Positions 46,110 through 64,000 of a stretch of 64,000 bases of DNA are shown piece by piece. The notes under the pieces were generated by a model that did not search any database, was not told the origin of the DNA, and saw nothing but the letters and a program-made list of their open reading frames with translations. This DNA is from Elsinoe ampelina. Taxonomy: Eukaryota. The position numbers and the translations under genes were made by a program. Position 1 is the stretch's first letter. Every line of letters starts with the position of its first letter. Where the stretch lies: NCBI GenBank assembly GCA_010093995.1, contig ML992509.1, positions 1,077,850-1,141,849 on the forward strand, read 5' to 3'.

Positions 46110-47842
46110 TCACTTCTCCTCCACCTTCACCTTCTCAACCTCTACACTCCTATCACTCCCCCTCCTCTCCCCATCCACCCCCTCCAAACTCGCCGCGAAC
46201 CTCTCCTCCTCCCAAGCCCTCATCTCCTCCCTCGACACCCTCGCCTCGGGCACCGGGAAAACCCAACTCAGCCCCGCATACACCACGGCAGCACTCATGA
46301 AGCCCCACAGATAATTGAAATTGTAAATCTTCTCCGCGGCCCCGATATAAACACTCGAATCCACATTCCTGATCAACCCGGGCATGTTCGGCCCCAGACT
46401 CACCACCAGCGCCACCACGGCCCGGAAATTCGTCCCCTTCCAGTACCGATACCTCCCCATCGGTCTGTACAGCGCGGGCACGTCGATGCGTCGCCCGCTC
46501 ACGACCCAGTAATCCGTCGCCAGCAACGCGGCGATGGGCGCGAGGAAGACGGCCAGCGCCGACATGAAGTTGATCAGACTGGCCGCGCTGCTGACGATTT
46601 TCCAGGGCACCATGACCCAGGCGCCGATGATGGTGGTGATGATGGCGCCGCGGCGGATGTTGATGTACTTTGGACACAGGGAGGTCATGTCATTGGCGCA
46701 GGAGATGACGTTGGCGGATACGTTGACTCCGATCTGCGCGACGCACCATGCTGCGCCGCAGAAGAAGGCGGCGGCGCGGCCACCGGGCCCGTCGAAGCGG
46801 GACGTGAGTTGGACTGGGTCCCAGATGTATTCTCCGTAGACGACGCGGGAGGCGGATGTGGCGATGATGCCCATTACGCCGATGAAGGTGGAGATGCCGG
46901 GCATGAGGAGGGCTTGGAGGTAGACCTTACGGTCGGACTTCATGTACCGGGTGTAGTCGGCTACGTTGGTGGCCATGGTGGCCCAAGAGCCGGTGAGGGA
47001 GGACATGAAGTAGAGGATGAGCCAGGAGCGCTCGGAACCGGTGTAGCGCGGTTGTTGGTCCCAGATGTCGCCGCTGCCGCCGGCTTTGACGCAGAGGCCG
47101 ATGACCATGGCTACTGCGGCGAGGGTGACGAAGACGGCTTTGAAGAGGAAAAAGGATTTGAGTTTGTGAGGCGGGATGAGGAGGATGGGGAATTGGACGA
47201 GCCAGAAGATGAGGTGGGAGACCATTTGTTGGGTGGTGATGCCGGCCGAGGCGGGGAGGTTGTTCGGGATGAGAAGGTAGGAGGGCCAGATGGAGCGGAT
47301 GACTTGGGTCATGGCGGTGGCGCCGGAGTAGGTTTGGATGGAATGCCAGAAGAGGGCTGTGACCATGCGGATGACGACGGGGACGCGAGAGAACCAGTAG
47401 CCGAAGGAGGAGCGGGAGGCAATGGCGTAGGGGACGTGGAGACGAGCACCGACCATTCCGTTGAGGACGAGGGGAATGGCGATGATAGAGGTACCGAGGA
47501 TGAGGCAGACGAGGGCTTCGCGGTAGGTAAGGCCTATGCTGATGATGGCCGAGGCGCCAGCCCAGGATTGTGTGGAGAGGATATCAGACATCTGCGAGTG
47601 TTAGTTGAAAGGGAGGATAGGTGACGCTGTGGACTTACCCAGTATCCGACGAGTGACCATCCTCCCCAGGTTTGGCGTTCGAGAGGTGTGACATCGTTGT
47701 CGATGTTGACCCAAGTGCCAAGTGGAGCAAAGCTAGATGTTTGCTTTGGTAGCACCCAGGACTCCAAAGACGTGGTCCTGGCTTTGACCTTGGCTTTGAT
47801 GTGGTTGCTCTTGCTGATGACTCGTTCTTTGACAGCATCCAT
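46110..47842 (-). CDS. NCS1 nucleobase/allantoin permease (Fur4/Dal4-like)
   Basis: WVNIDNDVTP..TWGGWSLVGYW|MSD; RSSFGY; WATMATNVADYTRY; VSANVISCANDMTSLCPKYINIRRG; VPWKI; about 12 TM segments; intron ~47591-47638. Confidence 0.92.
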
Positions 47843-48434
47843 GGTGATGGAGTGAGCAGCGAGACTCTGTCAGCACGCTCTGAAAATCCCTTGACCAGAA
47901 ATCAAGAACGGTGTGCATCAAGACATTTGTATGTTCACTCCCTCATCCTCCAGGACGGGCTACTATCTCGCCCTCATCAAGGGAACAGATGTGACGATTG
48001 ATAGGCGTGTGGTGAGCTTCCCGAGGCGGCCGACGCGTATGCTTGTCATGTAGTCTGTGATAGAGGAGTTCATGCATGTCGTGACCGCCTAACAATAGGG
48101 TCCGCGTGCTGAGACAAACTTTAATTGGGTCAACTGCCGACGTGGAGGAAAGGGTTTTGAAGTGAGGAAGTCGATAAGGTTAGTGTTGCCCGAGGGATTC
48201 CGAGGGCCCAACATGCCTTTGAACTTGATGGCATCATCCCACTATTGCATGATATACGAGCCTGACAGCAGGATCATGGACATCAAGTCAAGGGATGATA
48301 GGTAAATCAACGGGGCTATCTCGAGGGTGGCAGTGTCAATGCCCGCCAATCTCGCGAATCATTTCGAATATCTCTCGTCGTGAAGCGTGATTACAGCTAT
48401 GTACATAAGGTACTCTCAATCCCAATCCCAATCC

Positions 48435-50357
48435 CTAAGCGGTATAGAAATCATTGACCCCAGGATTATACATGTCTGGAGTCTGTAAGGCCAGAGGCTG
48501 TAGAAGCATATCCTCGGCAGGCTCCATGTTCTTCCATTTGTCCCACCCCAACGCCTGCAGTCGTGTCAAAGTAAATTGAATCCAATCGCCCATTTTCGCT
48601 TTTATCCGCAATTGCCATTCCAGGTCCTTCATCAACAATCGTAGTTCTTGACTCTCTGCAAGATTTCGGCTCGTGGCATTCATGAGTCCGAGAAATGAGC
48701 CCAGCATGGTAGCACAGCTGCCCGCAGCAGCAATCCAAAAAGCCTCCATATGCTGGGACTGGAGCTGTCGGAAGAAGTCAACAATGGTGCGGACCCGGGT
48801 GAGTTGGGTGGATCTGATGAAGACTATAAATTGGTCGATGTTACCCAACGGATCGAATGGGTCGGTATCCTGAGCAGCCCAGATGAGTCGGCGGTATACG
48901 GCCACGGAGACTGCATGGTGCATTAGATAGAGACAGGCGCTCGCATTCAGTCGTCCTGTCTCGTGATACTCAAATCTCAGCTCAGGTGCTAGATTCTTTT
49001 GGAGCTCCGCCAGCTGCCTGCCAATTGGCTCGACTACAGGAAGCACTTGGGTGTAGAAGTCGTTCACGTTGCGCCTGGCCTTGGATAAATACAGCCCTCT
49101 GACAACCTGGTTCGCAACGATGGCAAGCTTGGCCATTTCCATGAACATGATCTTACCGTCCTCGATGCTGGGCTGCTCCTGCGTGTCTTCATCCTGCCGA
49201 CCTTCCGAGAAGTCCGAGGGTTCAAGTGGTAACACATCCCAGTCCACGAGATTCAGGACCTGGTGATAGCCTTGTGTCAGGGCGGCGAAAGCATCCTGAA
49301 TCACAAGAGCCCAGGCCAGTCGTTTTCGTAGTCCACGTTCCCATGATGGTATCGCCCAGGTTGTACAATCCAAGTGGAGGCCCATCTGCTGGCCTAGAGC
49401 TATGAGTGACGCCAGAAACGTGGCACTCAGTGCACTGCTTGTAGGTGCTGTTGAACTCGGTAAGTTTCGCTGCAGCAGGAGAAGTCCGGCTTGCACCGAG
49501 TTCAGTCGAGGCCTGAGGAAGGACTCCTGTACAGCGCGATACGCGAGAGATGCCAGTGCCTCTTCGTCAAGCTTGCCTTCAGCCAATAGCTCCTCGTCAT
49601 ACATCCACCACTTTGTCGCCAGACAGTACACGGTGCCAAGCAAGTGCGGAGTGATCTCCTTGTAAGTACGTTCATATTTCTCGATAAAAACCTGCTTGTG
49701 GAGTATTGGAAATGATGGATGGACGATGCGAAAGTAGAGTCTGACGAGAGCTGGCCCATGAGGTTTGACGAGATTCTCGATGTCATCCACGGTCACATGA
49801 TTCTTGGATTCCAGGAGGCTCACGTTGTCCGGAACCATGCGGAATAGAGCATCTTCGTCGACTCGTCGGATTTGAGTATACAGGCCTCCTTGCTTGCGCG
49901 GCGGGATGCCAGGTGTCCGTTGTCCGAGGCCATTGACCGGGACGTGCTGGTAATCAACATCGTTGGACAATAACAACCAATCATGACTACCATTGGGTCC
50001 AACGAGCTCGCAGGATCGGCTCTTCTCTAGACCTAATGTCTCGGTGAGAATTGAATGAATTGGATAATCGGGTGAACTCGTCGACGAAGGCGCAATGCTG
50101 TCCTTTGCCTGGCCAGTGACGTTGCTGGTATTGTTTGTATTTGCTTGACTGGGCTGTGAGTTGGCAGGAGATGTATGCGGCGTCACGCGTCGACGCTTTG
50201 GTGGAGGAGGCTCAAGAAAGGTGCATTGCTCTATTCCCAAAGTCCGACACGTCAAGCAAAGTGACGAATCATCCAGCGCTATACATCGCTGTTTTCTCTT
50301 ACGACAGACGTCGCATGCTCTGCTGCTGGGCATGCTCGGGAGCCGGCTATGCGCCAA
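48435..50357 (-). CDS. Zn(II)2Cys6 transcription factor with Fungal_trans domain (Dal81/TamA-like)
   Basis: ACDVCRKRKQRC..CLTCRTLGIEQC; LVRLYFRIVHPSFPILHK; MGLHLDCTTWAIPSWERGLRKRLAWAL; intronless 640 aa. Confidence 0.9.
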   Translation of the reverse strand: MAHSRLPSMPSSRACDVCRKRKQRCIALDDSSLCLTCRTLGIEQCTFLEPPPPKRRRVTPHTSPANSQPSQANTNNTSNVTGQAKDSIAPSSTSSPDYPIHSILTETLGLEKSRSCELVGPNGSHDWLLLSNDVDYQHVPVNGLGQRTPGIPPRKQGGLYTQIRRVDEDALFRMVPDNVSLLESKNHVTVDDIENLVKPHGPALVRLYFRIVHPSFPILHKQVFIEKYERTYKEITPHLLGTVYCLATKWWMYDEELLAEGKLDEEALASLAYRAVQESFLRPRLNSVQAGLLLLQRNLPSSTAPTSSALSATFLASLIALGQQMGLHLDCTTWAIPSWERGLRKRLAWALVIQDAFAALTQGYHQVLNLVDWDVLPLEPSDFSEGRQDEDTQEQPSIEDGKIMFMEMAKLAIVANQVVRGLYLSKARRNVNDFYTQVLPVVEPIGRQLAELQKNLAPELRFEYHETGRLNASACLYLMHHAVSVAVYRRLIWAAQDTDPFDPLGNIDQFIVFIRSTQLTRVRTIVDFFRQLQSQHMEAFWIAAAGSCATMLGSFLGLMNATSRNLAESQELRLLMKDLEWQLRIKAKMGDWIQFTLTRLQALGWDKWKNMEPAEDMLLQPLALQTPDMYNPGVNDFYTA

Positions 50358-50675
50358 TGCATGATTCAGTGTAGAGATCCCGTGTGTGACGCCCTATGTC
50401 GTCCTCGGGGTGTTCGGGGTGTTCGGGGCAGGAGTTGTGGGAGATGTAGAAGGTCAGGGTTGCTCTGTTGGTTAGCTTAAACGGATAAAGGAGCCATGTG
50501 CGTGCGATTCTGGACCTCGGGCTGTCCCCACCTTTCCCGAGGGCAACTTTTGCGACTCTGCTTGACATGCTCCATCAACAAGAGTCCGTCATTAAGAGAC
50601 TGGGCAGTGATTAGATATATGGATCATGACCAAGGTAGAAATCCCGGTAAGTCTCGTCACGTACAATTTCAAGTC

Positions 50676-52874
50676 ATGGCACCTTCATTGGAGGCACATT
50701 CGCCACCTACCACTCCTGATATTGCCCTTTCGAAACAGCTACTGAAGCCAAACTATCAGGATAGCAGCAACGATGAGATATCCTTTGACGCTCTCCCTTA
50801 CCGTTTCTCATTCAACCCGCAGAAATGTGCACTCCTCATCATCGACATGCAGAGGGACTTCCTCCTAACCGATGGATTCGGCCACATTCAAGCCGGCGAC
50901 GCTGGCGTTGATGCCGTACAACGGACCATCATGCCGACTTTAGAAGTGCTAAAAGCATTCAGAGCATCTGGCCTAAAAGTTGTCCACACACGCGAAGGAC
51001 ATCGTCCAGATTTGAGGAATTGCCCAACCACTAAGCTGGTGCGGCAGGCACGCACTCCTGGATCTCGCCACAACCTGGTCATAGGTGACAAAGGCCCAAT
51101 GGGGAGGCTTCTTACAAAGGGCGAATACGGCCACGACATCATCGATGAATTGCAGCCGTTGCCTGGAGAGGTCGTCATTGACAAGCCAGGGAAGGGCAGC
51201 TTCTTCGCAACAGATCTTCACCAGCAACTCGCGGATCGAGGAATCACCCACCTCATCGTTGCTGGTGTCACTGTCGAGTGTTGCGTGGCGACCACGGTTC
51301 GAGAGGCGAATGACAGAGGATTCGACGCATGCGTGCTCAGCGACTGCACGGATGGCTTCGTCCCTGACTTCAAGTCCTCATCACTGGATATGGTATGCTT
51401 CTCGGATGGCCTATTCGGCTTCGTGTCATCGTCACCGTCACTCAAGACCGCACTTGTAGACTATCGGAAGCGAAAGTCTCTCCCCCCTCAATGGAGTGGC
51501 GAGATGGACATTGAGTCCCTCCAGAAAGCTTATGCCGACGGACTCTCCCCATCATCAGTGATCAAGCAGGTGCTGGGCCGCATGAGGGAGGTACAAGCTG
51601 AGCATCCTAACATCTGGATCACCACAGTAGACGAACGAGACCTCTACAATCGGGCCTCATTCCTCGACCATCACACAGAGCGCAATCTGCCACTGTTCGG
51701 CGTCCCCTTTGCCGTGAAAGACAACATCGATGTTGCAGGCCTTCCCACCACGGCGGCATGCCCGAAGTTCAGCTACACCCCTACCGAAAATGCCGAGGTG
51801 ATCGAAAACCTGCTCGCTGCAGGCGCGATTTGCATCGGAAAGACCAATATGGACCAATTTGCCACTGGTCTAGTCGGCGTCCGATCTCCCTATGGTGCAT
51901 GCCACTCGAAGTTCTCAAACAACCATGTTTCTGGCGGCTCAAGTTCCGGTTCTGCTTTAGCCGTAGCACTTGGACTAGTATCTTTCTCTCTAGGCACCGA
52001 CACAGCTGGCAGTGGACGTGTACCAGCCGCTTTTAACAACATCGTCGGTCTCAAGCCCACCAAATTCACAGTATCAAACCAAGGCGTCGTACCAGCTTGC
52101 AAAACCCTCGACTGCGTCTCATTCTTCGCCACCACTGTAGAAGACGCCAGAACCGCATGGCTCAACGCAAAGCACAGCGCAAGCCTCGACTCCTTCACCA
52201 CCTCACCACTACGCCAGCTCCTCCCCACAAATCGCTCAATCCTCCCAGAAAGCGCATCCTACACCTTCGGCCTCCCACCGCAAAGCCTGATTTCGCAACA
52301 CCTCTGCCCATCATACCTCCCCCCCTTCGAAAAAGTCCGCTCATCCATGTCCCTCCTCCCCGGGGCCACCCCTGCACCCTTCGACTTCACCCCCTTCATG
52401 ACAGCAGCCAGCATGCTCTACCGCGGGGCCTATCTCGTCGAACGATCCGGCGCATTCCGCTCCTTCTTCACCGACCCTGTCAACTCGGACGCCGTCTTCC
52501 CCGCCGTGAAGACTGTTCTCGAAGCCGGGCTCAAAGTCACGGGCGTCGAAGCGCTGGACGACATGCACCTCACTGAGGAGCTGACAAAGCAGGTGTATGC
52601 TCAATTCGACACGTGTGATTTCCTCGTGGTGCCGACGGCGCCGAATCATCCCACGTTGAAGGAGTTGGAGGTGGAACCGGTGAAGAGTAACCTTGCGCTG
52701 GGGGTTTTTGCGAGCGCGGTGAATATTCTGGATCTTTGTGCGTTGGCTGTGCCGGCTGGTTGGGCGGAGGTTGGAGAGGTGAGGTTGCCGTTTGGGATTA
52801 CGCTTGTTGCGCCGGCTGGGAGGGAGGGGGTTTTGTTGGAGGTTGCTGGTAGGCTTGGTAAGGTCATGGGGTAG
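50676..52874 (+). CDS. Fusion of an isochorismatase-family cysteine hydrolase (triuret/biuret-hydrolase-like) and an amidase-signature allophanate hydrolase
   Basis: N-domain: IIDMQRDF, HTREGHRPDL, IGDKGPMGR, IDKPGKGSF, GVTVECCV..REANDRG. C-domain: GVPFAVKDNIDVAGLPTTAACP, GKTNMDQFATGLVGVRSPYG, GGSSSGSA, GTDTAGSGRVPA. Likely start MAPSLE at 50676; intronless. Confidence 0.9.
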   Translation: MAPSLEAHSPPTTPDIALSKQLLKPNYQDSSNDEISFDALPYRFSFNPQKCALLIIDMQRDFLLTDGFGHIQAGDAGVDAVQRTIMPTLEVLKAFRASGLKVVHTREGHRPDLRNCPTTKLVRQARTPGSRHNLVIGDKGPMGRLLTKGEYGHDIIDELQPLPGEVVIDKPGKGSFFATDLHQQLADRGITHLIVAGVTVECCVATTVREANDRGFDACVLSDCTDGFVPDFKSSSLDMVCFSDGLFGFVSSSPSLKTALVDYRKRKSLPPQWSGEMDIESLQKAYADGLSPSSVIKQVLGRMREVQAEHPNIWITTVDERDLYNRASFLDHHTERNLPLFGVPFAVKDNIDVAGLPTTAACPKFSYTPTENAEVIENLLAAGAICIGKTNMDQFATGLVGVRSPYGACHSKFSNNHVSGGSSSGSALAVALGLVSFSLGTDTAGSGRVPAAFNNIVGLKPTKFTVSNQGVVPACKTLDCVSFFATTVEDARTAWLNAKHSASLDSFTTSPLRQLLPTNRSILPESASYTFGLPPQSLISQHLCPSYLPPFEKVRSSMSLLPGATPAPFDFTPFMTAASMLYRGAYLVERSGAFRSFFTDPVNSDAVFPAVKTVLEAGLKVTGVEALDDMHLTEELTKQVYAQFDTCDFLVVPTAPNHPTLKELEVEPVKSNLALGVFASAVNILDLCALAVPAGWAEVGEVRLPFGITLVAPAGREGVLLEVAGRLGKVMG

Positions 52875-54055: not shown

Positions 54056-55436
54056 GGCACGACTTGCATATGAGGAGGTCCTGTCGATCCTACAACCTGT
54101 ACGCCGCTGCATTGAGCTACAGGGTCACAATTGCAATCGAGAAAAGGCTGTTTCAAGGGAGAGGACTATACCAGGATGTCTTGGATCTCGAGGTGGAGAC
54201 AAACAACAGCCCAGGTCATTCGTCAGAGTACCTCCTGCAGTAGCGTACGAGTTGGAAGCGACCACGAGCTCACCGGAATGATACGTCTCGCCCGGGTTTT
54301 GTCCGACTGCTCGAGATGCCTCGGCATGTCGACGGGCAAAATGCTTCTTTACAGGAAGCTTTCGGAACACTCACCATGATCGCCACTGTCTGGGATACAG
54401 ATGGCATCAAATCCATTGATCTCTGGGGAAATTGTGGATCACTTAGCCCTCCCTCTACCCCCCCATTTCATGCAGAAGCAGTGAGCGAGGGGTATGAACG
54501 CGGCACGGAGATATCCAGGAGGAATTCAGGCGCTTTGGGACCCAGTGCTCAGCCTTCCTGCGCGTACTTTGCACCCACTTCTGCATCTGTACGATGCGTG
54601 ATCAATGAGGTGGTAAGAAGCAACAGGTTTCGCCGAGTTTCTTTGCCTCAATGCTTGGACATCGTTGAGAGGTGGACAATCACACCGGAGACTCGGAATT
54701 GACCATGTGCGACATTGCCGTCCTGCGTGTGGATCTGGTCTGTTTATAGAGTAAGATCGTTGGGGCAGGTGGGTCGGGGCGCGGTAGGACAGTGGGCTGA
54801 TGGACGACGCTAGCAGGGGTACCTGCGCATCCGGAACAGGCCGATGATATTCTCCACTTCCCGCGGTCACATCCCACCCCTCCGATCCACTCGATAAACC
54901 CTACATGCATTGCAGACACACTCATGAATGGCAAATGGATCTGTCAAGAAACACGGCTCAGCCAGCTGCATGTCAGCCTTCACCCAGTAGTGGCGTTTCA
55001 AACCAACCAGTCTCGATCAACCAGACATGGGTCTGATCAAATCGATCCACCCACGCAGGACACGATCTGGCTGCTCGAACCCGCTTCTAAGGACGCTCAT
55101 AAGCAGAGACTACGTTAGTGCGGCTACAGATGGTGCTTGTTTCATCTGCATCCTGGACCATCACCTCCTATCAAGCTCTAGATCAACCACCAAGCTAGGT
55201 TTGGGCAGAGATGCATTGCGAGCATCTGTGCTATCCTTGTCTCCAACCGATGGTGCAGTGGCAAGTTGCATTCAGCTCCCTACCACTGCTCCTGATAACA
55301 CTAGCACCTCACATGGTGGCTTTCATAGCAATACTGCAGCTCAAGTATAAAAAACTCCATCTCCTCCCTCCCTCATTCCGATTCCAAACCCTCATCCCAA
55401 CAACCCCATTTACCACTTCCTCCTCAAAAGCACAAC

Positions 55437-56142
55437 ATGCACCTTCCTCCCCTCCTCCTCTCTCTCCTCCCCATCACCCTCGCCTCCCCCCTCCCCCTCC
55501 ACAAGCGCCAAACCTCCTACAACGGCGGCTCCACCGCCACCGACATCACCTCCGGCCTCTGCGCCCCCCTAACCGTCATCTTCGCCCGCGGCACCACCGA
55601 ACGCGCCACCCTCGGCACGGTAATCGGGCCCTCTCTCTTCTCCGCCCTCAAGAGCAAACTCGCCGGCAACGTCGCCCTCGAAGGCGTGACCTACCCCGCT
55701 TCCGCGGCCGGGAACGCGAATCTCGGCGCCGACGGCGGGCCGACGATGGCGCAGTTGGGGAACCAGGCGCTGGCCAAGTGTCCCGGCACGAAGGTGGTGT
55801 TGAGCGGGTATAGTCAGGGGGCGATGGTGGTGCATAACGCGGTGGGGAAGAGTGGGTTTGCGTCTGCGAGTGTGGCGGCGGTGGTGTTGTTTGGGGATCC
55901 TTGTGAGTCTTTTTCCCCTTCGGATGGAGGAGTCATGGGGGTGAGGCGTTGTGCTGACAGGGATAGTATTGAAGCAGTCTGTCGGCTCGGTGCCGGCGGC
56001 TAAGGTCAAGCAGTACTGTGCGACGGGCGATGGGGTGTGTCAGGGGGGTGGATTTGGGATCACGGCCGCCCATTTGTCTTATGGTAGTAGTGCGAGTGAT
56101 GCGGCGGATTTTATTATCAAGACTGCTGGGATTAGTGCTTGA
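55437..56142 (+). CDS. Secreted cutinase (CE5)
   Basis: Signal peptide; CAPLTVIFARGTTE, nucleophile GYSQG, VLFGDP, CATGDGVC, AHLSY; intron ~55903-55966. Confidence 0.93.
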
Positions 56143-56295
56143 GAAGGGGAGGGATGTTGAGGGTGAAGGGGCGGGCTATGGGCGGAGGAGGATGGAGAGG
56201 GGGATTTTCTGCGTAAGCGTGGTAGGATTATGCAATTGAATGATTTGGTCTTCTTACGCTACTGTCTGCGTGCTGATGGCCACGGCGTAAAGCCC

Positions 56296-58943
56296 TTACA
56301 CTCCTGTCCATGTGAACGATGTCGGCAAGGAAACCTCTTTCCTCAGTACTTCACTCTTCGGGTCCGCACTCCTGGCGATGATGACTTCAAACACACCCTT
56401 CTCGGCGGACCACTTGTCCTGTCTCTCATCCCAGAACGACAGAGCGTACTTGTCGAGCTCAATCTCCACGGTTTCCGTCTCTCCCGGTGCGAGATCGACC
56501 TTCTTGAAAGCCTTGAGCTCCTTGTGCGGCCGTATCACGCTGCTCTTCTTGTCCGAAACGTAGACCTGTACCGTCTCCTTGCCTTGCTTGTCACCCACGT
56601 TCTTCACGTCGACCTTGACCGTGACGACATGGTCCGCACCACCAGCCCATTCCTCTGGCACCACCAGATTGCTGTACTCGAACTGCGTGTACGACAACCC
56701 GTGGCCAAAGTAGAACAATGGCGGCCTATCCACTTTCTCATGGTACCTGTACCCAACAAACACACCCTCGCCATACAACAGATCCGAGTCCGCCTTCCCA
56801 AACGTCAAAAAAGCCGGCGTATCCTCCAACCTCTTCGGGAACGTCTGACTCAACCTCCCACTCGGATTCGCATCCCCAAACAAAACATCCACCAACGCCC
56901 TCCCCGTCTCCTGCCCACCAAACCAAGCATGCACCAACGCCCCCGCTCCCTCCAACCAAGGCATCGCAATCGGACTCCCCGCCTGCGTCACCACCACCGC
57001 ATTCGGGTTCGCCTCCACCACCCTCCGGATCAACTCGTCCGTCCTCCCCGGCAGGTCCAAATGCGTACGATCACTCCCCTCGTACTCCCAATCCTTCGTG
57101 AGACCAGTCAACACAACAGGCACCTCCACCTCCTTCGCCAACGCCACGGCGTCATCCATCGCCTTGTCCCCGTCCACGATCTCGTACCCGCCCAACCTCA
57201 CACCGGCAGTCGGCATCGCGCCCACCGCCTTCTCCACCCCTTCGTTCACCACCAGGATCTCGATCTCGTACCCTTTGCCTTCTTCGAGTTGCACGTCGGC
57301 AGTGACTTCGCTGCTCGCGGCGTTGAACATGGGCGTGTCCCCTGTTTTCTCAGGGTGGGAGGTCCAGAGATCGATGACCTCTTTGCCGTCGAAGGACAAT
57401 TTACCCTTGCCGATGACGCACAGCCCAATACGGAAGGCGCAGGTCTTTGGGGCGGTGAAGGTGGTGCGGATGCGGAGGAACCATTGCGGGGGGAGGTTGG
57501 CGGGGAGGGAGTCGGCGAGGAACATGTAGGTTTCTTGGGTGGTGACGGTGGCGATGGGTTGGGCGGAGGGGGAGGAGGTGGGGTTGGTGGGGAACCACTC
57601 CAGGATGAGGCCGGGGTCGGAAGTGGAGGGGATGGTGAGGCCGGTGGTGAGGAGGGGGGCGAAGCGGTGGGCTGGAGAGGTCAGGGTGGTTGGATGGGAA
57701 GGGGGGAGATGACTCACTGTAGCATCCGATTTGGAGCGGGACTTCGTGGCCAACTGCTTCGATGAAGGCATCGTAAGGTTTGCTGATATAGTAGGGATTG
57801 AGATCGGCACTTCCGCCGCCGCTTGCTGCTGGGAGTTGCCAATGAGGTCCGATCAGACCATACTTCTTCCCGGCTTTCTTGTCGAGAGGTAAGATGTTCT
57901 TGTCGTTCTTGAGCAGCACGATTGATTCGGTTGCCACCTGACGGACCAGTGCTTGACTCTCGGTATCGTTTCGTGGTAGATCAGCCGAGCCTGACATCGC
58001 AGGCTGAACCTTGTTGACAAATTCGAGCACGTTTCGGACGCAAGCATCGAGGGCTGCCATGGATACTTTTCGGCTGTTGACTGCCCAAGTAAGGATGTTC
58101 CCTCGCCACTTGGTCGGTCCCGGCATCTCCAGATCAAGACCCGCATTGATGGCTTCGGAAGTGCTGTAGGTACCACCCCAGTCACTCATCACCAAACCAT
58201 TCCAGCCCCAGTCCTTTCTAAGCACTTCATTCAGTAGATGTGGGTGCTCTGCCACATGAGTCCCGTTGATCTTGTTGTATGAAGTCATGTAGCCCCAAGG
58301 GTTCGACTTCTTCGCAGCGATATGGAAAGGCAGCAAATGCACTTCCCTCAATGCCCTCTCCGAGACCACAATATTATCCTCAATGGACCAAGCGGACTGA
58401 TCATGAGCGGCATAGTGCTTGATGATGGCGCCAACTTTGTGCTTCTGCATACCGTTGATCAGAGCAGCGGCGATATTACCACTCATCACTGGGTCTTCGC
58501 CGAAAGCTTCGAAACCACGGCCGATCAGGGGCGATCTCTGGATGCACACAGTAGGTCCAAGGAATGCTTGGATGTTACGGGCTCTGGCTTCTTTGCCGAG
58601 CAGATCACCCACTTGCTCCATGAGCTCGGTGTTGCATGTGGCGCCCATGCCAGTGGCGGATGGTAGCAGAGCTGCCGGCTCCTGTAACAAGATCTGAGCA
58701 TATTACATTTGAGATGTGGTCGTGCACATACACTGTTGAAGAAGCTAGTGCCTCGAAGTCCATGAGGGCCATCAGAAGTCTGTAAGGTCAGTCTGCGTGG
58801 TATTGCTCGGTAGTGATGATACCGACTGTGATGCTCGGTATGCCCAGTCGTTCAATTGCTGCGGTCCTCCACGTATCCACACCTGCGGTCAGCGCCACCT
58901 TCTCCTCGAGCGTGAGCTCCGTGAGCAGCTTATCGATATCCAT
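56296..58943 (-). CDS. Intracellular GH3 beta-glucosidase with PA14 and Fn3-like domains
   Basis: [21 protein letters not shown] (no signal peptide); [17 protein letters not shown]; nucleophile [40 protein letters not shown]; three introns. Confidence 0.93.
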
Positions 58944-59178: not shown

Positions 59179-62100
59179 ATTTCCTACAATTCCCAAGCCG
59201 GCTAAAGGCCGGCTTATGAAGGCCAGGTCAAAATATCTCGCTACCAATCAGAAACTACCAAAATTCAGTGCGCATATGTTGAATATCGCTTCCTACAAAC
59301 AAATAAAAGAAACAGAAAATGAGTAAGTACTTCGATAGACTAGGTAACCCCTGTATACCTCCGTGACTACGCCTGTTAGAGGGCGTCTCTAACCCCTATC
59401 GCTGTTGCTGTTACCCCCTAGTTCTGCCTAACTTACCCCCCTCCCCCTTTTGCTCTACTCCCTTCTCTCCTCTATCTCTATACTACCTCCCTAAGGTCCT
59501 TTAGGTACCTAGTAGCTCTAAGCTCCTTAAACGGCATGTCGGGGAGCCTTAACATCTACTTAAGCTATATATAGGACCTTTAGAGGCATTTATTCTTCTT
59601 GCCTTTCTAGTTTATTACTACCTATAACTCGTATATACTCTTATTTCCTTCCTTTATATATTTAAGTAGTTATTGTTATATGCTAATTAGGATGTCCTGT
59701 AGTTATATGCCTTTTACCTACTTCTTAGTTGCTCTCTAGTTATTGTTCTATATAATAAGCTACTTACTCTTTACTAACTTAATAGTAGTAAAGGTATAGT
59801 AGTACTATAGGTTAGAGTTCTACTATTCGTAGCTAACCTAGAAGAAGATCTAGATAGAGTAGATCCTAAGCTAGATATTATATCTACTACTATATAGCGT
59901 ATAGTAGGCCTCTTTAAGTATTGCTCTTTAGTGCTAGTTAGGAATTATATCTCTCTAGTTTGCCCTTATTATTACGTTTTTATAGCTAATAATATTAGGG
60001 TAGACCTATAGCCTATCCTGCGCCGGAGGGTTGTTTATTAAGCTTAATAGAAAGCAGTAGAGATAAGAGGCAAGTATAGAAGAGTTAGTAGGTAGAGAGG
60101 GTAGCGACTCTCTCCCTAGAGTAGTAGCGAGGTGTCTAGTAGCCTCCCTTTCTCTCTCCTAGTTTTATAGAATGCCTGTAGTAAACTGCTATACCTATTC
60201 CTAGTAACTAAGCTTAATAGAGAGTATAAGCCTTAACCTCTTTACTACTACCTAGAGGGGTCCCTCTACTAGGTCTAATATCTCTACTTACCTATAGTTA
60301 ATTTAGCTAGAGTTACCTAGGATACCTACTTTATAAGTTACTTAAGCGCCTATATGTTTCTTTAGTTTACTAGAACTAGGTTTTAGCCGAGGGGTAGCTA
60401 CTAAAATAGCTAGTAATAGAGGGCTACTCCGCGCTTCTAAGGGTATTACTCTTCGATTTACTAGAGTAAACTCCCTACTCTAGCTTGCCTTCTATATTAG
60501 GCGTCTATAGAAGTTCGAGATAGCGCTACTAATCGATTTATATACTATTTGCTTTGTCCTAGCTATCCTTAGTGCTAGAGTTAGAGTTATCTCTTCTACT
60601 AGGCTAGAACTACCTTCTATAGTCTTAGGGATTAGAGGCGTTAATTTCTAAGTGTCTAAACGTATAGAAGAGTATATATTTATCTATGTATTAGTCTATA
60701 ATAATTTAGTTTCGATATGTAAGGAGAAAGAGAGTAGGTTAGTTAAGGAAGTTATTAGGGCTTAATCCCTAGCGCCGAGAGATAAGATAATCTCTTAGTA
60801 CTAGGGCGCGAGACTTATATTCTATATGTATAGTCTATACTAGCGAGGTATTACCTCTTAGCGCTACTATCTTACTATTTACGTATAGTAATCTAAACTA
60901 GCTAGTAGTAAATCTCTATATACTAATAGAAAAGTATACTAACGCTAAGGCCTAATATAATACTACTTTAGTAATTTATATCTAATATTATATTACTTAG
61001 TACATATCGTATAGAGCTTATATTTATGTTATTATATCGCTATCTATTCTTAGAGCGCTATAGCTATAACTATATTAACGTCCTTAAATTACCTAAGGCG
61101 GCGTGTCGTAATTAAGAAGTTTACTATTCTATATATGCTTTATAGGATAGTAAGGAGGTTTTTTATATCGATAGAGTTTAGCCCTTGCTAAAGGTATTAC
61201 TACTAGAGGTCCTCGAACTCTAGGCATTTAGTAAGAAGGTGTCTTATAGTGTCGTTTACTTCTCTATAATATAGGTATATTAGGGTCTCTTCGAGTTATA
61301 GTGTCTATAGGAAATGTCGAAGTTCTATCTTCTCTATACGTGCCTAAATAAGCACTAATAACTCGGCCTTTCGTAATCCCCTATAAAGCTTTAGTATATC
61401 TACTATTAGCGTCCCTGTCTATTTTCTAGTTAGTGCTCTAGCGGCTCCTTTAGCCTATTCTCCTCTCTACGTGTCCTTAATAAGCTAGACAATTGTGTAT
61501 TTAATGCTAATAACGCCGCTATAGAAGCGTACTAAGATAGAATTAGAGGTAAAGGCATCCCGCGATTAAATCGGAAGTATTATTACTTGTTTTACTAACT
61601 TGTCTACCTTCTCGTTACTATCGATGCCGATATAGGCTAGGATCTAGTATAGACTAACCCGCCGTCCTTAGCTATAGATCTTGTCGATAAGTTTAATAAT
61701 TATCTAAAGGATCTACTAGGACGGCCTAGGTTATAGGTCCTATACCTACTTAAGAGCGCTTTAATTATTAGTAAAGATATAGTATATATTAGCTATATAT
61801 TCGAGGAGGTACTTTCTAATGTCCTCTAGCGCTATTATAATAGCGGCTAGTTCCCCTCTATACACCGTAGCGCGGAGTATAGACTCTAGGCCCTACTTAA
61901 GGTACTTAACTTATATTTAGTAGCGAATAACTACTATAGCGCTAACTCTTCTATCCTTTTCTAAGCCGTTAGTATATACTACTATAGCTTCCTCGGTAAG
62001 TGCCTATTACGTTAGCTAGTTATAGTACTCTATAGCTTATTCCTTGCTATCCTCGATTATTACGACAGGTGCGTCCTACTATAGTAGTACTACGAAGAGT

Positions 62101-62287
62101 AGGGGCGTCTTAATAGAGAGTATAATATGCTTATTAATACCTGTGTTATATTACTACACTATAATTATGCCTTTCTACTAACATTCTAGCTGTTAAAGGG
62201 GGCTCTAGTTCCTATATCTACGTGTTTATATAGGTCTTTTACTCTACGCAAGTTAAATTACTAGGTATTTATCTAGCTAGAGAAACG
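59155..62287 (-). mobile_element. RIP-degraded non-LTR retrotransposon (Tad/I-like LINE), 3' part
   Basis: Minus-strand RNase H remnants VYTNGLEK (YTDGS), TVYRGELAAIIIAL, IFTNN*SAL, Y*ILAYIGIDSNEKVDKL (WIPAH..GNE.AD) at ~61590-61990; (AATC)n tail at 59155-59178; strong TpA excess and CpA/TpG depletion. Confidence 0.8.
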
Positions 62288-64000
62288 TGTTACGAACTAG
62301 TAGGACAGCTAGAACGCGGGGACGTTAGGACTAATTAAGCTACCGAGATTATTACGTGACCTAGCCCGACGTTTACCTAGTTCTCTATCTTCTCTAGTAG
62401 CTCTACCCTAGGGACTATAGAGCACGTAGGTTACCGGCGGACATATACTCTATATTGCCTCCGACTCTCGCTATAGAGCATATAGAGTACATAGAGTACG
62501 TAGTAAAGAACATATATATATAGGAGTAGTCCTTACCTTATGTAAGTACTATAGTTAACCTTGTCTAGATAGCGAACACTAGTATTACTAAGGCTAGCCT
62601 TTATAATACTATCTAATTATACTTTATTATCTATAAGACATACCTTCTCCAACTCTTACCTTAGTACTATACTACTATAGAAGTAGAACTACCTCGTTCT
62701 TAGCTTAGCTTAGACTACTAGCGTAAGCTATATTTAGACGGTTTATAACATTTTAACTACTCTTACTATAGCATAGCACGCTACGAGGTTAATAAGTAAC
62801 TCTTGCTCTAAGTTATTATTAGTATCTTTAATCGCTAGTAAGCTAGGAAAGCTTACTATTAACGACATGTCTACTACTAGTTTAACCTCGGGCAAATATA
62901 GAAGGTCTTTTAGTATAGAAGGACAAAGCAAGCCTAAGTTAGAGGTAGAACTCTTCTATAGGGACTATACCTACTTAAGGCGCTTTCTTATTTAACTTAA
63001 AGCCTTCTTCGCCCTAGAGGGGGACAAGTACGTAAACGACGTAGCAAAGGTCCTCTATACCGAGATACACCTTAAAGGCGCTACCTTCGGGTGGTTCGAG
63101 CCTTATATAAGTAGCTACCTAGATAGATAACTAGGCCTAGATATAAAGGCTATCTTTAAGAGCTTTAACATCTTTTAGGCAAAGATTAAACAAGTCTTTA
63201 ACGTATCTAATAAGGAACGCGTCGCCGCGACGAAGATCTAACAATTATAATAACGTAGGTCTATAGCCTAGTACTATTCCTAGTTCTAATAACTCGTAAT
63301 GTACCTAGACTAGGACGATAGTGCTAAACACTTAGTATTCTACTAAGGACTAAGTAACTCGGTCAAAGACTAAATAATACCTAAGCTACCTAATAGCCTT
63401 TAGAAACTAGTAGACACTACAATTGCTATCGATAATAGACTTTATAAACGACATATAGAACGTCGTAGAGGATATAAGGTAAATACTAGATATATACGTT
63501 TCTCTCGAAACTATAGAGACTCTATAGAACTTAATGCTATATACGAAGGCTACCTCTTATAGATACGAGGCTATAGCCGTAGAGGAAAGTTCCTTAGTAG
63601 AAAAGAGAGAGAGAAGTATAGACGAGATAATCTATGTTTTAAGTGTAAAAGACCTAGGCATCGAGCTAGGGACTACCGACAAGGGGCGCTAGCTAATAGA
63701 TTATATATAATAGTTACTAGGCTAGTAGAAAAAAAGGCTAACACTACTATAGAAGACCTAACGACCTTTAGCGTAGGTAAGGAAACATAGAAGGAGTCTA
63801 TAATAACTCGAGAGGTAGTAGAATCCTCTCTAGATGTTATACTTAATATCTCTACGACTAATAGCAAATAATAAAGCTAACACGTAACGCTATTATAGAT
63901 AGCATATTATAATAACTCTTGTTATATTTACTTATTAGACAAGTAGGGATCTAGTTAGTTCCTATATAAGCTATCTAAGCGTAGGTAACTAACGAAATAG
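62288..64000 (+). mobile_element. RIP-degraded Ty3/gypsy LTR retrotransposon (5' LTR ~62288-62750 plus gag), truncated by the window
   Basis: LTR termini TGTTACGAAC...GTTTATAACA; gag remnants LRRFLI*LKAFF..KVLYTEIHLKGATFGWFEPY and DSIELNA (DPMELDA); zinc knuckle LCFKCKRPRHRARDY at ~63633-63680. Confidence 0.82.

Follow-up and report, generated by a model that had tools for sequence, protein, structure and literature searches.

A conserved three-gene cluster of Elsinoe ampelina and other Ascomycota with a probable role in ureide nitrogen catabolism

Which nitrogen source, if any, is served by three adjacent genes at positions 46110-52874 of a 64,000-nucleotide stretch of contig ML992509.1 (hereafter the window) of Elsinoe ampelina, the agent of grapevine anthracnose? 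The genes encode a Fur-type NCS1 permease and a Zn2Cys6 regulator, both on the minus strand, and, on the plus strand and transcribed divergently from the regulator, a fusion of an isochorismatase-like cysteine hydrolase with an allophanate hydrolase (AH) amidase domain. An original prediction, made from the letters of the DNA, had taken them to be a module for the uptake and breakdown of a triuret- or biuret-like compound. Here we report that they form a conserved fungal gene cluster whose linkage extends across distant species, and that the cluster probably serves the breakdown of a small ureide or an acyl-urea as a source of nitrogen.

The gene identities were established by scanning the stop-to-stop open reading frames (ORFs) of the 46-53 kb region with Pfam and NCBIfam profiles. 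The ORF at 46110-47600(-) matched Transp_cyt_pur (PF02133, 1.3e-96). That at 48438-50393(-) matched Zn_clus (PF00172, 23.2 bits against a cut-off of 21) and Fungal_trans (PF04082, 8e-20, 71.4 bits against 23); with both its Zn2Cys6 domain and its fungal transcription factor middle domain above the Pfam cut-offs, the regulator belongs to the fungal Zn2Cys6 family. In the single ORF 50481-52871(+), Isochorismatase (PF00857, 2.7e-37) was followed by Amidase (PF01425, 3e-76), and this large ORF found its best match, at 99% identity, in the deposited "putative amidase [Elsinoe ampelina]" (P0002). Pfam, NCBIfam and the matches to solved structures agree on the domain identities, the three genes are those that had been predicted, and the interval 46110..52874 proposed for the cluster spans all three genes as refined here (Table 1). 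The evidence from synteny, trees and residue signatures is at the level of sequence, and the solved structures were likewise matched by sequence.

Synteny across fungi had been named beforehand as a check of the prediction, and it proved positive. Fusion genes lie within one to three genes of the permease, a regulator or both in many fungi of three classes (Dothideomycetes, Eurotiomycetes and Sordariomycetes), with linkage in at least 15 named species plus one metagenome locus (L028). These relations were read from locus tags, accession order and shared contigs, and locus tags do not give strands and distances. In each named species with all three genes (Table 1) these fall within 4 gene positions, and in four other species the fusion and permease are 2-3 positions apart; gene order is rearranged between lineages, but linkage is kept. 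Weak evidence of the same kind comes from E. fawcettii, Sphaceloma murrayae, P. variotii No. 5 and T. stipitatus, where the fusion and a regulator of the cluster-linked clade described below were found on contigs of equal, large size. All five Pleosporales checked (Melanomma, Lophiostoma, Decorospora, Corynespora and Lentithecium) carry the fusion 2-3 genes from a regulator named OTam by the sources; this neighbor is a member of a broad OTam/DAL81 clade and not the cluster-specific paralogue.

That the adjacency is coincidental, the three genes having unrelated roles, is the reading that we consider hardly credible. Zn2Cys6 factors and permeases do often lie beside unrelated genes in fungi, and the upstream neighbors in the window are housekeeping genes. 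The linkage nevertheless recurs in three Ascomycota classes with rearranged order, and PMC12625717 describes bacterial and archaeal gene groups of a similar kind, in which biuH or trtA stands with a permease and a regulator.

Several clusters contain a further gene. One lies between the regulator and the permease in Capronia (A1O1_09260), T. atroroseus (UA08_01345), P. lecythidis (Plec18170_004241) and Cirrosporium (M1834_006949), and in the Pleosporales the accessions between fusion and regulator (protein pairs P0037/P0307, P0041/P0287, P0055/P0324, P0090/P0276 and P0082/P0278) leave a place for one. This extra gene could be a further pathway gene. The E. ampelina window has no room for it, since 592 bp separate the permease from the regulator. 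In a second metagenome locus with the fusion (L001), the ORFs upstream of the fusion had no Pfam match and no similarity to the E. ampelina regulator or permease.

We then turn to the hydrolase half of the fusion. Among proteins of solved structure it matched TrtA best (6xix, 2.9e-62), followed by BiuH (6azo, 6.3e-54; 6xjm, 7e-52) and RutB (2.4e-22). TrtA is the triuret hydrolase of Herbaspirillum sp. BH-1 (PDB 6XIX/6XJ4/6XJE; Tassoulas et al. 2020, PMC7948467). According to that work TrtA and the biuret hydrolase BiuH have D24, F29, K129, K132, C162 and Q202 in common and differ by consensus at six positions, where TrtA has F35, N41, A134, E160, Y187 and I205 and BiuH has Y, Y, S, D, T and V (PMC7948467). 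When the query residues were mapped onto TrtA numbering through a HMMER alignment, the catalytic triad was found intact (Asp36, Lys149 and Cys182 in P0002 numbering). The D24, F29, K129 and K132 positions are invariant in 30 of 30 fungal homologues, and the catalytic Cys is present in 29, the remaining row being gapped there. At three signature positions the query is TrtA-like (F35, E160 and the aromatic Phe at 187). Position 134 is Ser, and the change of A134 to Ser is neutral in TrtA (PMC7948467).

The tree agrees with these residues. In a FastTree analysis of 70 hydrolase domains, rooted on 11 of BiuH type and with references recognized by their signature residues and not as named sequences, all 33 fungal domains fell into one clade (support 0.98), which branches with the TrtA-type and apart from the BiuH-type sequences (support 0.92). 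By its residues and its place in the tree, then, the hydrolase half belongs to the TrtA lineage, but its distal pocket is altered. It resembles TrtA in fold, in the Asp-Lys-Cys triad, in F29, K132, F35, E160 and the aromatic residue at 187, and in its side of the tree, but it is eukaryotic, intron-bearing and fused to an amidase, and differs at positions 41, 202 and 205. With BiuH (Rhizobium leguminosarum 6AZO; Herbaspirillum 6XJM) it shares the fold and the catalytic residues, but it scores lower than with TrtA and lacks the key Gln and the BiuH signature.

The RutB match bears on another possibility, namely that the locus serves a pyrimidine (Rut-like) or nicotinamide-type pathway with a ureidoacrylate amidohydrolase or nicotinamidase half and a uracil or uridine permease. 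RutB is a detectable relative, also by its profile (TIGR03614, 2.2e-24), and some permease homologues are named uracil or uridine permease by their sources. Still, RutB reaches 83 bits against 214 for TrtA, other Rut or URC genes are absent from the 64-kb window, and an AH-like partner is foreign to any known pyrimidine route; we regard this pathway as very improbable.

The amidase half was assigned with similar searches. Its solved-structure matches were the AH of G. bethesdensis (4gyr, 3.3e-98), AtzF (4cp8, 1.3e-94) and the yeast-type AH (4iss, 6.7e-88), with far weaker similarity (8.5e-27) to 6c62, an entry deposited as "Biuret hydrolase" that we take to be AtzE, carboxybiuret hydrolase. 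Its scores with the two bacterial AHs, 332 and 321 bits, are slightly above the 299 bits reached with the AH of yeast Dur1,2, and it exceeds the cut-off of the NCBIfam AH subfamily PRK08186 (513.7 against 487) in a match that spans positions 6-445 of the 600 in the profile. Invariant in the 30 fungal homologues are the Lys of AVKDNID, the Ser-Ser of GGSSSG and the nucleophile Ser of TDTAGS; they form the Ser-cisSer-Lys triad K348, S422/S423 and S446 (numbering of a longer candidate model, P0001, from which subtracting 21 gives that of P0002). The nucleophile aligns with Ser177 of the yeast AH (PMC5770610). Equally invariant are a Tyr and an Arg eight residues apart (Y582/R590 in P0001 numbering), whose counterparts in 4gyr lie in the motifs LLYGG and WVAER. 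We take these to be Y299/R307, the pair reported by Lin and St Maurice (2013) to bind the allophanate carboxylate in G. bethesdensis AH.

Compared with AtzF (4CP8), the G. bethesdensis AH (4GYR) and the yeast Dur1,2 AH (4ISS/5I8I), the fungal amidase half is thus an N domain of about 41-45% identity that shares the Ser-cisSer-Lys triad, the Tyr/Arg pair and the subfamily profile but comes without the C-terminal domain. That domain, of about 14 kDa, is absent from 30 of 30 fungal homologues, whose tails past the amidase domain are 7-24 aa long; the query stop codon lies 9 residues past the last aligned amidase residue. A C-less AH domain is plausible as a working enzyme. In Dur1,2 the AH is joined to urea carboxylase, whereas the fungal amidase described here is joined to a cysteine hydrolase. 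The prediction that the fusion resembles bacterial TrtA/BiuH together with an AtzF-type AH, and differs from Dur1,2, is therefore borne out.

How might the three products work together? The Fur-type NCS1 symporter would import the ureide, and the N-terminal TrtA-lineage hydrolase would strip a terminal amide nitrogen from it as ammonia. Its product would be allophanate, or a carboxylated ureide decaying to allophanate, which the fused AH amidase domain would convert to ammonia and CO2. The adjacent Zn2Cys6 paralogue would activate the divergent promoter and the permease promoter. Because allophanate would be split by the fused domain, the proposed pathway would be independent of urease and Dur1,2; cyanuric acid hydrolase, urease and urea carboxylase genes are all absent from the 64-kb window. 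We infer the substrate, the direction of flux, the regulation and the specificity of the transporter.

With the triad kept and three pocket residues changed, the substrate of the hydrolase half would lie among biuret, triuret and other small ureides, and we rank them in that order, with biuret as our first choice. Biuret is favored because fusion to an AH suggests an allophanate intermediate: allophanate, the product of BiuH, is the exact substrate of the fused domain type, so that the fusion may act like BiuH followed by AtzF. Triuret is suggested by the TrtA lineage of the first domain, and a changed specificity by the loss of the Gln, Asn and Ile. A TrtA scaffold re-tuned to biuret is thus the reading that we favor, since Q202E raised the biuret activity of TrtA tenfold (PMC7948467) and the query clade has Asp/Glu beside position 202.

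A number of observations weigh against assigning the cluster to biuret or triuret, and the triuret- or biuret-like substrate of the original prediction is not established. First, the query reads F, G, E, F, S, L where the full TrtA signature has F35/N41/E160/Y187/Q202/I205, with pocket changes of N41 to Gly, Q202 to Ser and I205 to Leu, and of the BiuH signature (Y35, Y41, S134, D160, T187, Q215(202), V205) it has S134 alone. Q202 (BiuH Q215), positioned by N41, E160 and I205, is called "critical" for biuret/triuret binding, and the single changes N41Y and Q202E each cost TrtA more than 90% of its activity (PMC7948467). Among the 30 fungal homologues position 202 holds Ser in 19, Tyr in 6, Gln in 3, His in 1 and Phe in 1, and position 205 is Leu in all. 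With Q202, N41 and I205 all changed, the enzyme may therefore act on a substrate other than biuret or triuret. Second, the hydrolase half falls short of the NCBIfam BiuH equivalog NF050097 (220.9 against a cut-off of 370), and the amidase half falls short of the full-length AH equivalog TIGR02713 (466.9 against 511.05), the latter for want of the C domain, to which one school ascribes catalysis of the second half-reaction of AH (PMC5770610). Third, the full bacterial triuret pathway also employs BiuH and TrtB (PMC12625717), and neither a BiuH-type hydrolase nor TrtB is encoded within the 64-kb window. Finally, the RNA-like contigs described below demonstrate splicing and presence and are unable to rank expression or to compare conditions.

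The same pocket residues are central to two alternatives. In one, the fusion is a genuine triuret hydrolase: carboxybiuret decays to biuret, which is handled by an unlinked biuret hydrolase or a promiscuous amidase half, and the amidase half finishes allophanate. The position of the hydrolase half on the TrtA side of the split is in keeping with this, as are the remark that trtA is "also present in some fungi", the tie between triuret and urate oxidation around plants (both PMC7948467), and the measurable activity of AtzF on biuret, its assay substrate (PMC3944691). But all three triuret-pocket residues are changed, the partner genes of the triuret pathway are missing from the window as just described, and an AH fusion is most sensible if the first product is allophanate, that is, if the substrate is biuret. 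We therefore judge triuret hydrolysis rather unlikely.

In the other, the cluster serves a different amide (guanylurea, an acyl-urea, oxalurate, malonurate or another plant or microbial ureide), and the amidase half acts on a product other than allophanate. The distal loop takes at least four motifs in fungal subclades, FS[DE]G (the query clade), WSQG, SYDG and [AC]QNG, and such differing remodeling of the pocket suggests diversified specificity; the acidic residue that follows position 202 in the query clade might interact with a positively charged group, and the NCS1 family carries many heterocycles and ureides. Set against this are the score of the amidase half above the AH subfamily cut-off, the Tyr/Arg pair kept in all 30 homologues, and the retention of the core ureide-binding residues D24, F29, K129 and K132. 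An amide of this kind seems to us quite unlikely, and we retain the reading of a catabolic set for a small ureide or acyl-urea with biuret as the leading candidate.

To place the fusion among its bacterial relatives, we scanned metagenomes, confirmed 613 stretches and kept the 80 best loci, which are mostly bacterial. Forty hydrolase matches with at least 190 aligned residues were sorted by signature. The full TrtA signature was present in 24 of the 40 (46-57% identical to the query) and the full BiuH signature (Y/Y/D/T/Q/V) in 11 (42-47%); three were fungal-like (L001, L012 and L028, 47-59%) and two aberrant (the second copy of L075, 50%, and L080, 42%). The published consensus residues thus separate these uncharacterized sequences cleanly. 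Eight loci (L013, L014, L041, L054, L060, L070, L071 and L075) contain one hydrolase of each signature.

The complete fusion was found in L001 and L028 alone among these 80 best loci, and the Atlas clusters with both domains are 100% eukaryotic, mainly Ascomycota. In seven bacterial loci (L013, L022, L049, L060, L061, L071 and L075) the hydrolase gene adjoins a full-length AH gene; in two of them, L013 and L060, the gene that immediately precedes AH is of TrtA type, which is the order of the fungal fusion. Apparent bacterial fusions in L022 and L075, contiguous in tblastn, were rejected as two adjacent ORFs split by a stop codon. Bacterial and archaeal biuH or trtA genes grouped with atzF, a permease (including NCS1-family codB) and a regulator are described in PMC12625717. 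Such clusters, like those of L013, L060, L071 and L075, encode the same enzyme pair as the fungal cluster, often with a permease and regulator alongside, but as separate genes, usually with hydrolases of both types, a full-length AH and GntR-type regulators in place of a Zn2Cys6 factor. The simplest reading, we infer, is that a trtA-atzF pair became fused once, in an early ascomycete, possibly following gene transfer.

The regulator had been predicted to be Dal81/TamA-like. This was correct in that its nearest relatives outside its own group carry these names, but it is a paralogue and not an orthologue of the TamA/Dal81 group. Its orthologues, which outside Elsinoe and Sphaceloma are 44-56% identical, are those linked to the fusion. 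The next group, in which identity is 33-36% across about 92% of the protein, is present once per genome from Yarrowia to Pezizomycetes and Pleosporales, and the sources call its members "nitrogen regulatory protein OTam" or "DAL81". The comparison was with sequences that bear these names in the sources' own annotations. In a quick IQ-TREE analysis of 34 rows, the E. ampelina factor fell into a separate clade of 12 cluster-linked rows (support 100), and Capronia coronata has one gene in this clade and one in the broad OTam/DAL81 clade; the paralogy follows from the separate clades and the presence of a Capronia gene in each. Because a broad-clade member adjoins the fusion in all five Pleosporales, these data suggest that the dedicated factor may have arisen by duplication of a neighboring TamA-like gene. 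Compared with the co-activators TamA (Aspergillus) and Dal81 (yeast), then, the E. ampelina protein stands in its own clade of cluster-linked factors, while the paralogous group bearing their names adjoins the fusion in Pleosporales. Yeast Dal81 has a role in the allophanate- and oxalurate-induced expression of DAL and DUR genes, which fits the theme of the cluster.

The permease meets the model of its subfamily with exon 2 alone (TIGR00800, 360.4 against 353.1), as expected of a Fur-type NCS1 protein such as yeast Fur4/Dal4/Fui1, Aspergillus FurA-G or bacterial Mhp1, but it scores far below the cut-offs of the allantoin-permease equivalogs NF008476 and NF047713 (193.7 against 620 and 147.5 against 800, respectively). 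Its nearest relative of solved structure is the hydantoin permease Mhp1 (1e-20); hydantoins are cyclic ureides. The sources name its homologues allantoin, uracil or uridine permease, and we identified no characterized orthologue.

Two promoter motifs were noted, and we treat these observations as leads. The 592 bp upstream of the permease contain 6 HGATAR sites against about 1.3 expected (136 in the 64-kb window), which makes this a candidate region of nitrogen control by a GATA factor (AreA type). The motif CCTCGGG, chosen post hoc, occurs in the two promoters at 5 of its 13 sites in the window, 2 upstream of the permease and 3 between regulator and fusion. Containing CGG, it is a candidate Zn2Cys6 site. 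It is not enriched window-wide (13 seen, 9.7 expected), and it was not found upstream of the fusion in L001. The divergent promoter also has a tandem GTGTTCGGG repeat at about 50403-50428, and GGGATT stands three times in tandem at 48417-48434, just beyond the regulator stop codon.

Gene models (Table 1) were refined with RNA-like contigs from four coded runs of one study (X2-X5), whose kind we guessed to be RNA. Contigs of runs X2-X4 cover all three genes, with spliced joints in the permease and the fusion, and we conclude that all three are transcribed in the sampled material. The regulator span 48467-50463 is covered without a gap, and contigs bridge the hydrolase/amidase domain boundary of the fusion. 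On the 5' side of the fusion splice joint the contigs extend for 27 and 37 nt, as far back as about 50609. A fusion start at 50676 (P0001, 732 aa) was rejected, as the site lies inside the 113-nt intron shown by the spliced contigs. The start codons of regulator and fusion point away from each other.

Public annotations conflict at the 5' end of the fusion gene: the E. ampelina protein has 711 aa with the intron, and that of Elsinoe batatas (P0368) has 751 aa, is unspliced and starts MDHDQGRNP. The spliced contigs favor the intron version in E. ampelina. One homologue, P0022 of Talaromyces marneffei PM1, is annotated with 1277 aa, almost double the usual size, and is probably a gene model merged with its neighbor.

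Table 1. Features of the E. ampelina cluster (positions in the window) and gene identifiers of linked genes in other fungi
Feature or source	Position or identifiers	Strand	Details
NCS1 permease gene	46110..47842	-	561 aa; exon 1 47842..47639, exon 2 47591..46110 (with stop)
Permease intron	47638..47592	-	47 nt, GTAAGT..CTAAC..CAG; read from sequence and one X4 contig
Permease upstream region	47843..48434		592 bp, ends at regulator stop codon
Zn2Cys6 regulator gene	50333..48435	-	632 aa, single exon
Regulator-fusion bidirectional promoter	50334..50625		292 bp, ATG to ATG
Fusion gene	join(50626..50646, 50760..52874)	+	711 aa; product of same form as P0002
Fusion 5' intron	50647..50759	+	113 nt, GT..AG; skipped in one contig each of X2 and X3
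Isochorismatase-like cysteine hydrolase domain, TrtA type	50826..51392	+	PF00857
Allophanate-hydrolase-type amidase-signature domain, N domain only	51588..52838	+	PF01425, PRK08186
Macrophomina phaseolina assembly 1	KAH7018633, KAH7018634, KAH7018635		permease, fusion, regulator
Macrophomina phaseolina MS6	EKG18633, EKG18634, EKG18635		regulator, fusion, permease
Capronia coronata	A1O1_09259, 09261, 09262		permease, regulator, fusion
Cirrosporium novae-zelandiae	M1834_006947, 006948, 006950		fusion, permease, regulator
Paecilomyces lecythidis	Plec18170_004239, 004240, 004242		fusion, regulator, permease
Talaromyces atroroseus	UA08_01344, 01346, 01347		permease, regulator, fusion
25,317-nt contig			permease, regulator, fusion all recorded on it
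Oleoguttula mirabilis	LTR36_007315, 007317		fusion, permease
Clonostachys chloroleuca	V2G26_004797, 004799		fusion, permease
Xylariomycetidae sp. FL2044	KAH9889733, KAH9889735		fusion, permease
T. proteolyticus	KAH8689069, KAH8689072		fusion, permease
Metagenome locus L028			intron-rich NCS1 gene divergently upstream of WSQG-type fusion

The genes that flank the cluster are unrelated to it. Upstream are genes for a trehalose-phosphate synthase, a cyclin, a proteasome subunit, MCM7 and a PI4-kinase, and downstream are cutinase and GH3 glucosidase genes. The latter two, at 55329-58702 just past the cluster, encode a cutinase (PF01083, 3.9e-30) and a multi-exon GH3 beta-glucosidase with PA14 and Fn3-like domains, secreted enzymes of a type typical of plant pathogens. 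G+C content falls to 0.36 at 60000-64000, against 0.47-0.61 in the rest of the window, and this end may be a repeat-rich or RIP-affected stretch at the edge of a gene-dense region.

To our knowledge, breakdown of biuret and triuret is known solely from bacteria. The literature searchable here yielded no account of the fungal fusion or its cluster, and none of fungi growing on biuret, in line with the initial statement that no fungal example had been characterized; Tassoulas et al. mention fungal trtA in passing (PMC7948467). The enzymology is thus already known, from bacteria. What appears to be new, judging from the literature searched here, is the eukaryotic fused form without an AH C domain, its remodeled pocket, and the conserved cluster in which a permease and a TamA-type paralogue are dedicated to it.

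Biuret and triuret are impurities of urea fertilizer, biuret is toxic to plants, and triuret arises from urate oxidized by peroxynitrite. A more far-reaching proposal, which we hold to be possible but doubtful, is that a eukaryote-specific bifunctional enzyme, derived from a bacterial trtA-atzF pair and given by its remodeled pocket (N41G, Q202S and I205L) a specificity unlike that of TrtA or BiuH, would form together with the NCS1 importer and the duplicated TamA/Dal81-type regulator an unrecognized system of nitrogen scavenging that needs neither urea nor urease, occurs widely in Ascomycota and may target urate-oxidation products of plant defense.

If the reading of the cluster as a ureide catabolic set is true, it would provide a eukaryotic route for biuret, triuret or a related natural ureide that bypasses urea. 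It would also give a function to a protein whose annotations in hundreds of fungal genomes vary between "Glu-tRNA amidotransferase subunit A", "amidase" and "allophanate hydrolase", suggest what an orphan Fur-type transporter may carry, and exemplify a TamA/Dal81 paralogue dedicated to a single pathway. Finally, the fungal enzymes would be a natural experiment on substrate switching in the TrtA/BiuH pocket, a question left open by Tassoulas et al., who did not achieve interconversion of TrtA and BiuH by any single mutation (PMC7948467).

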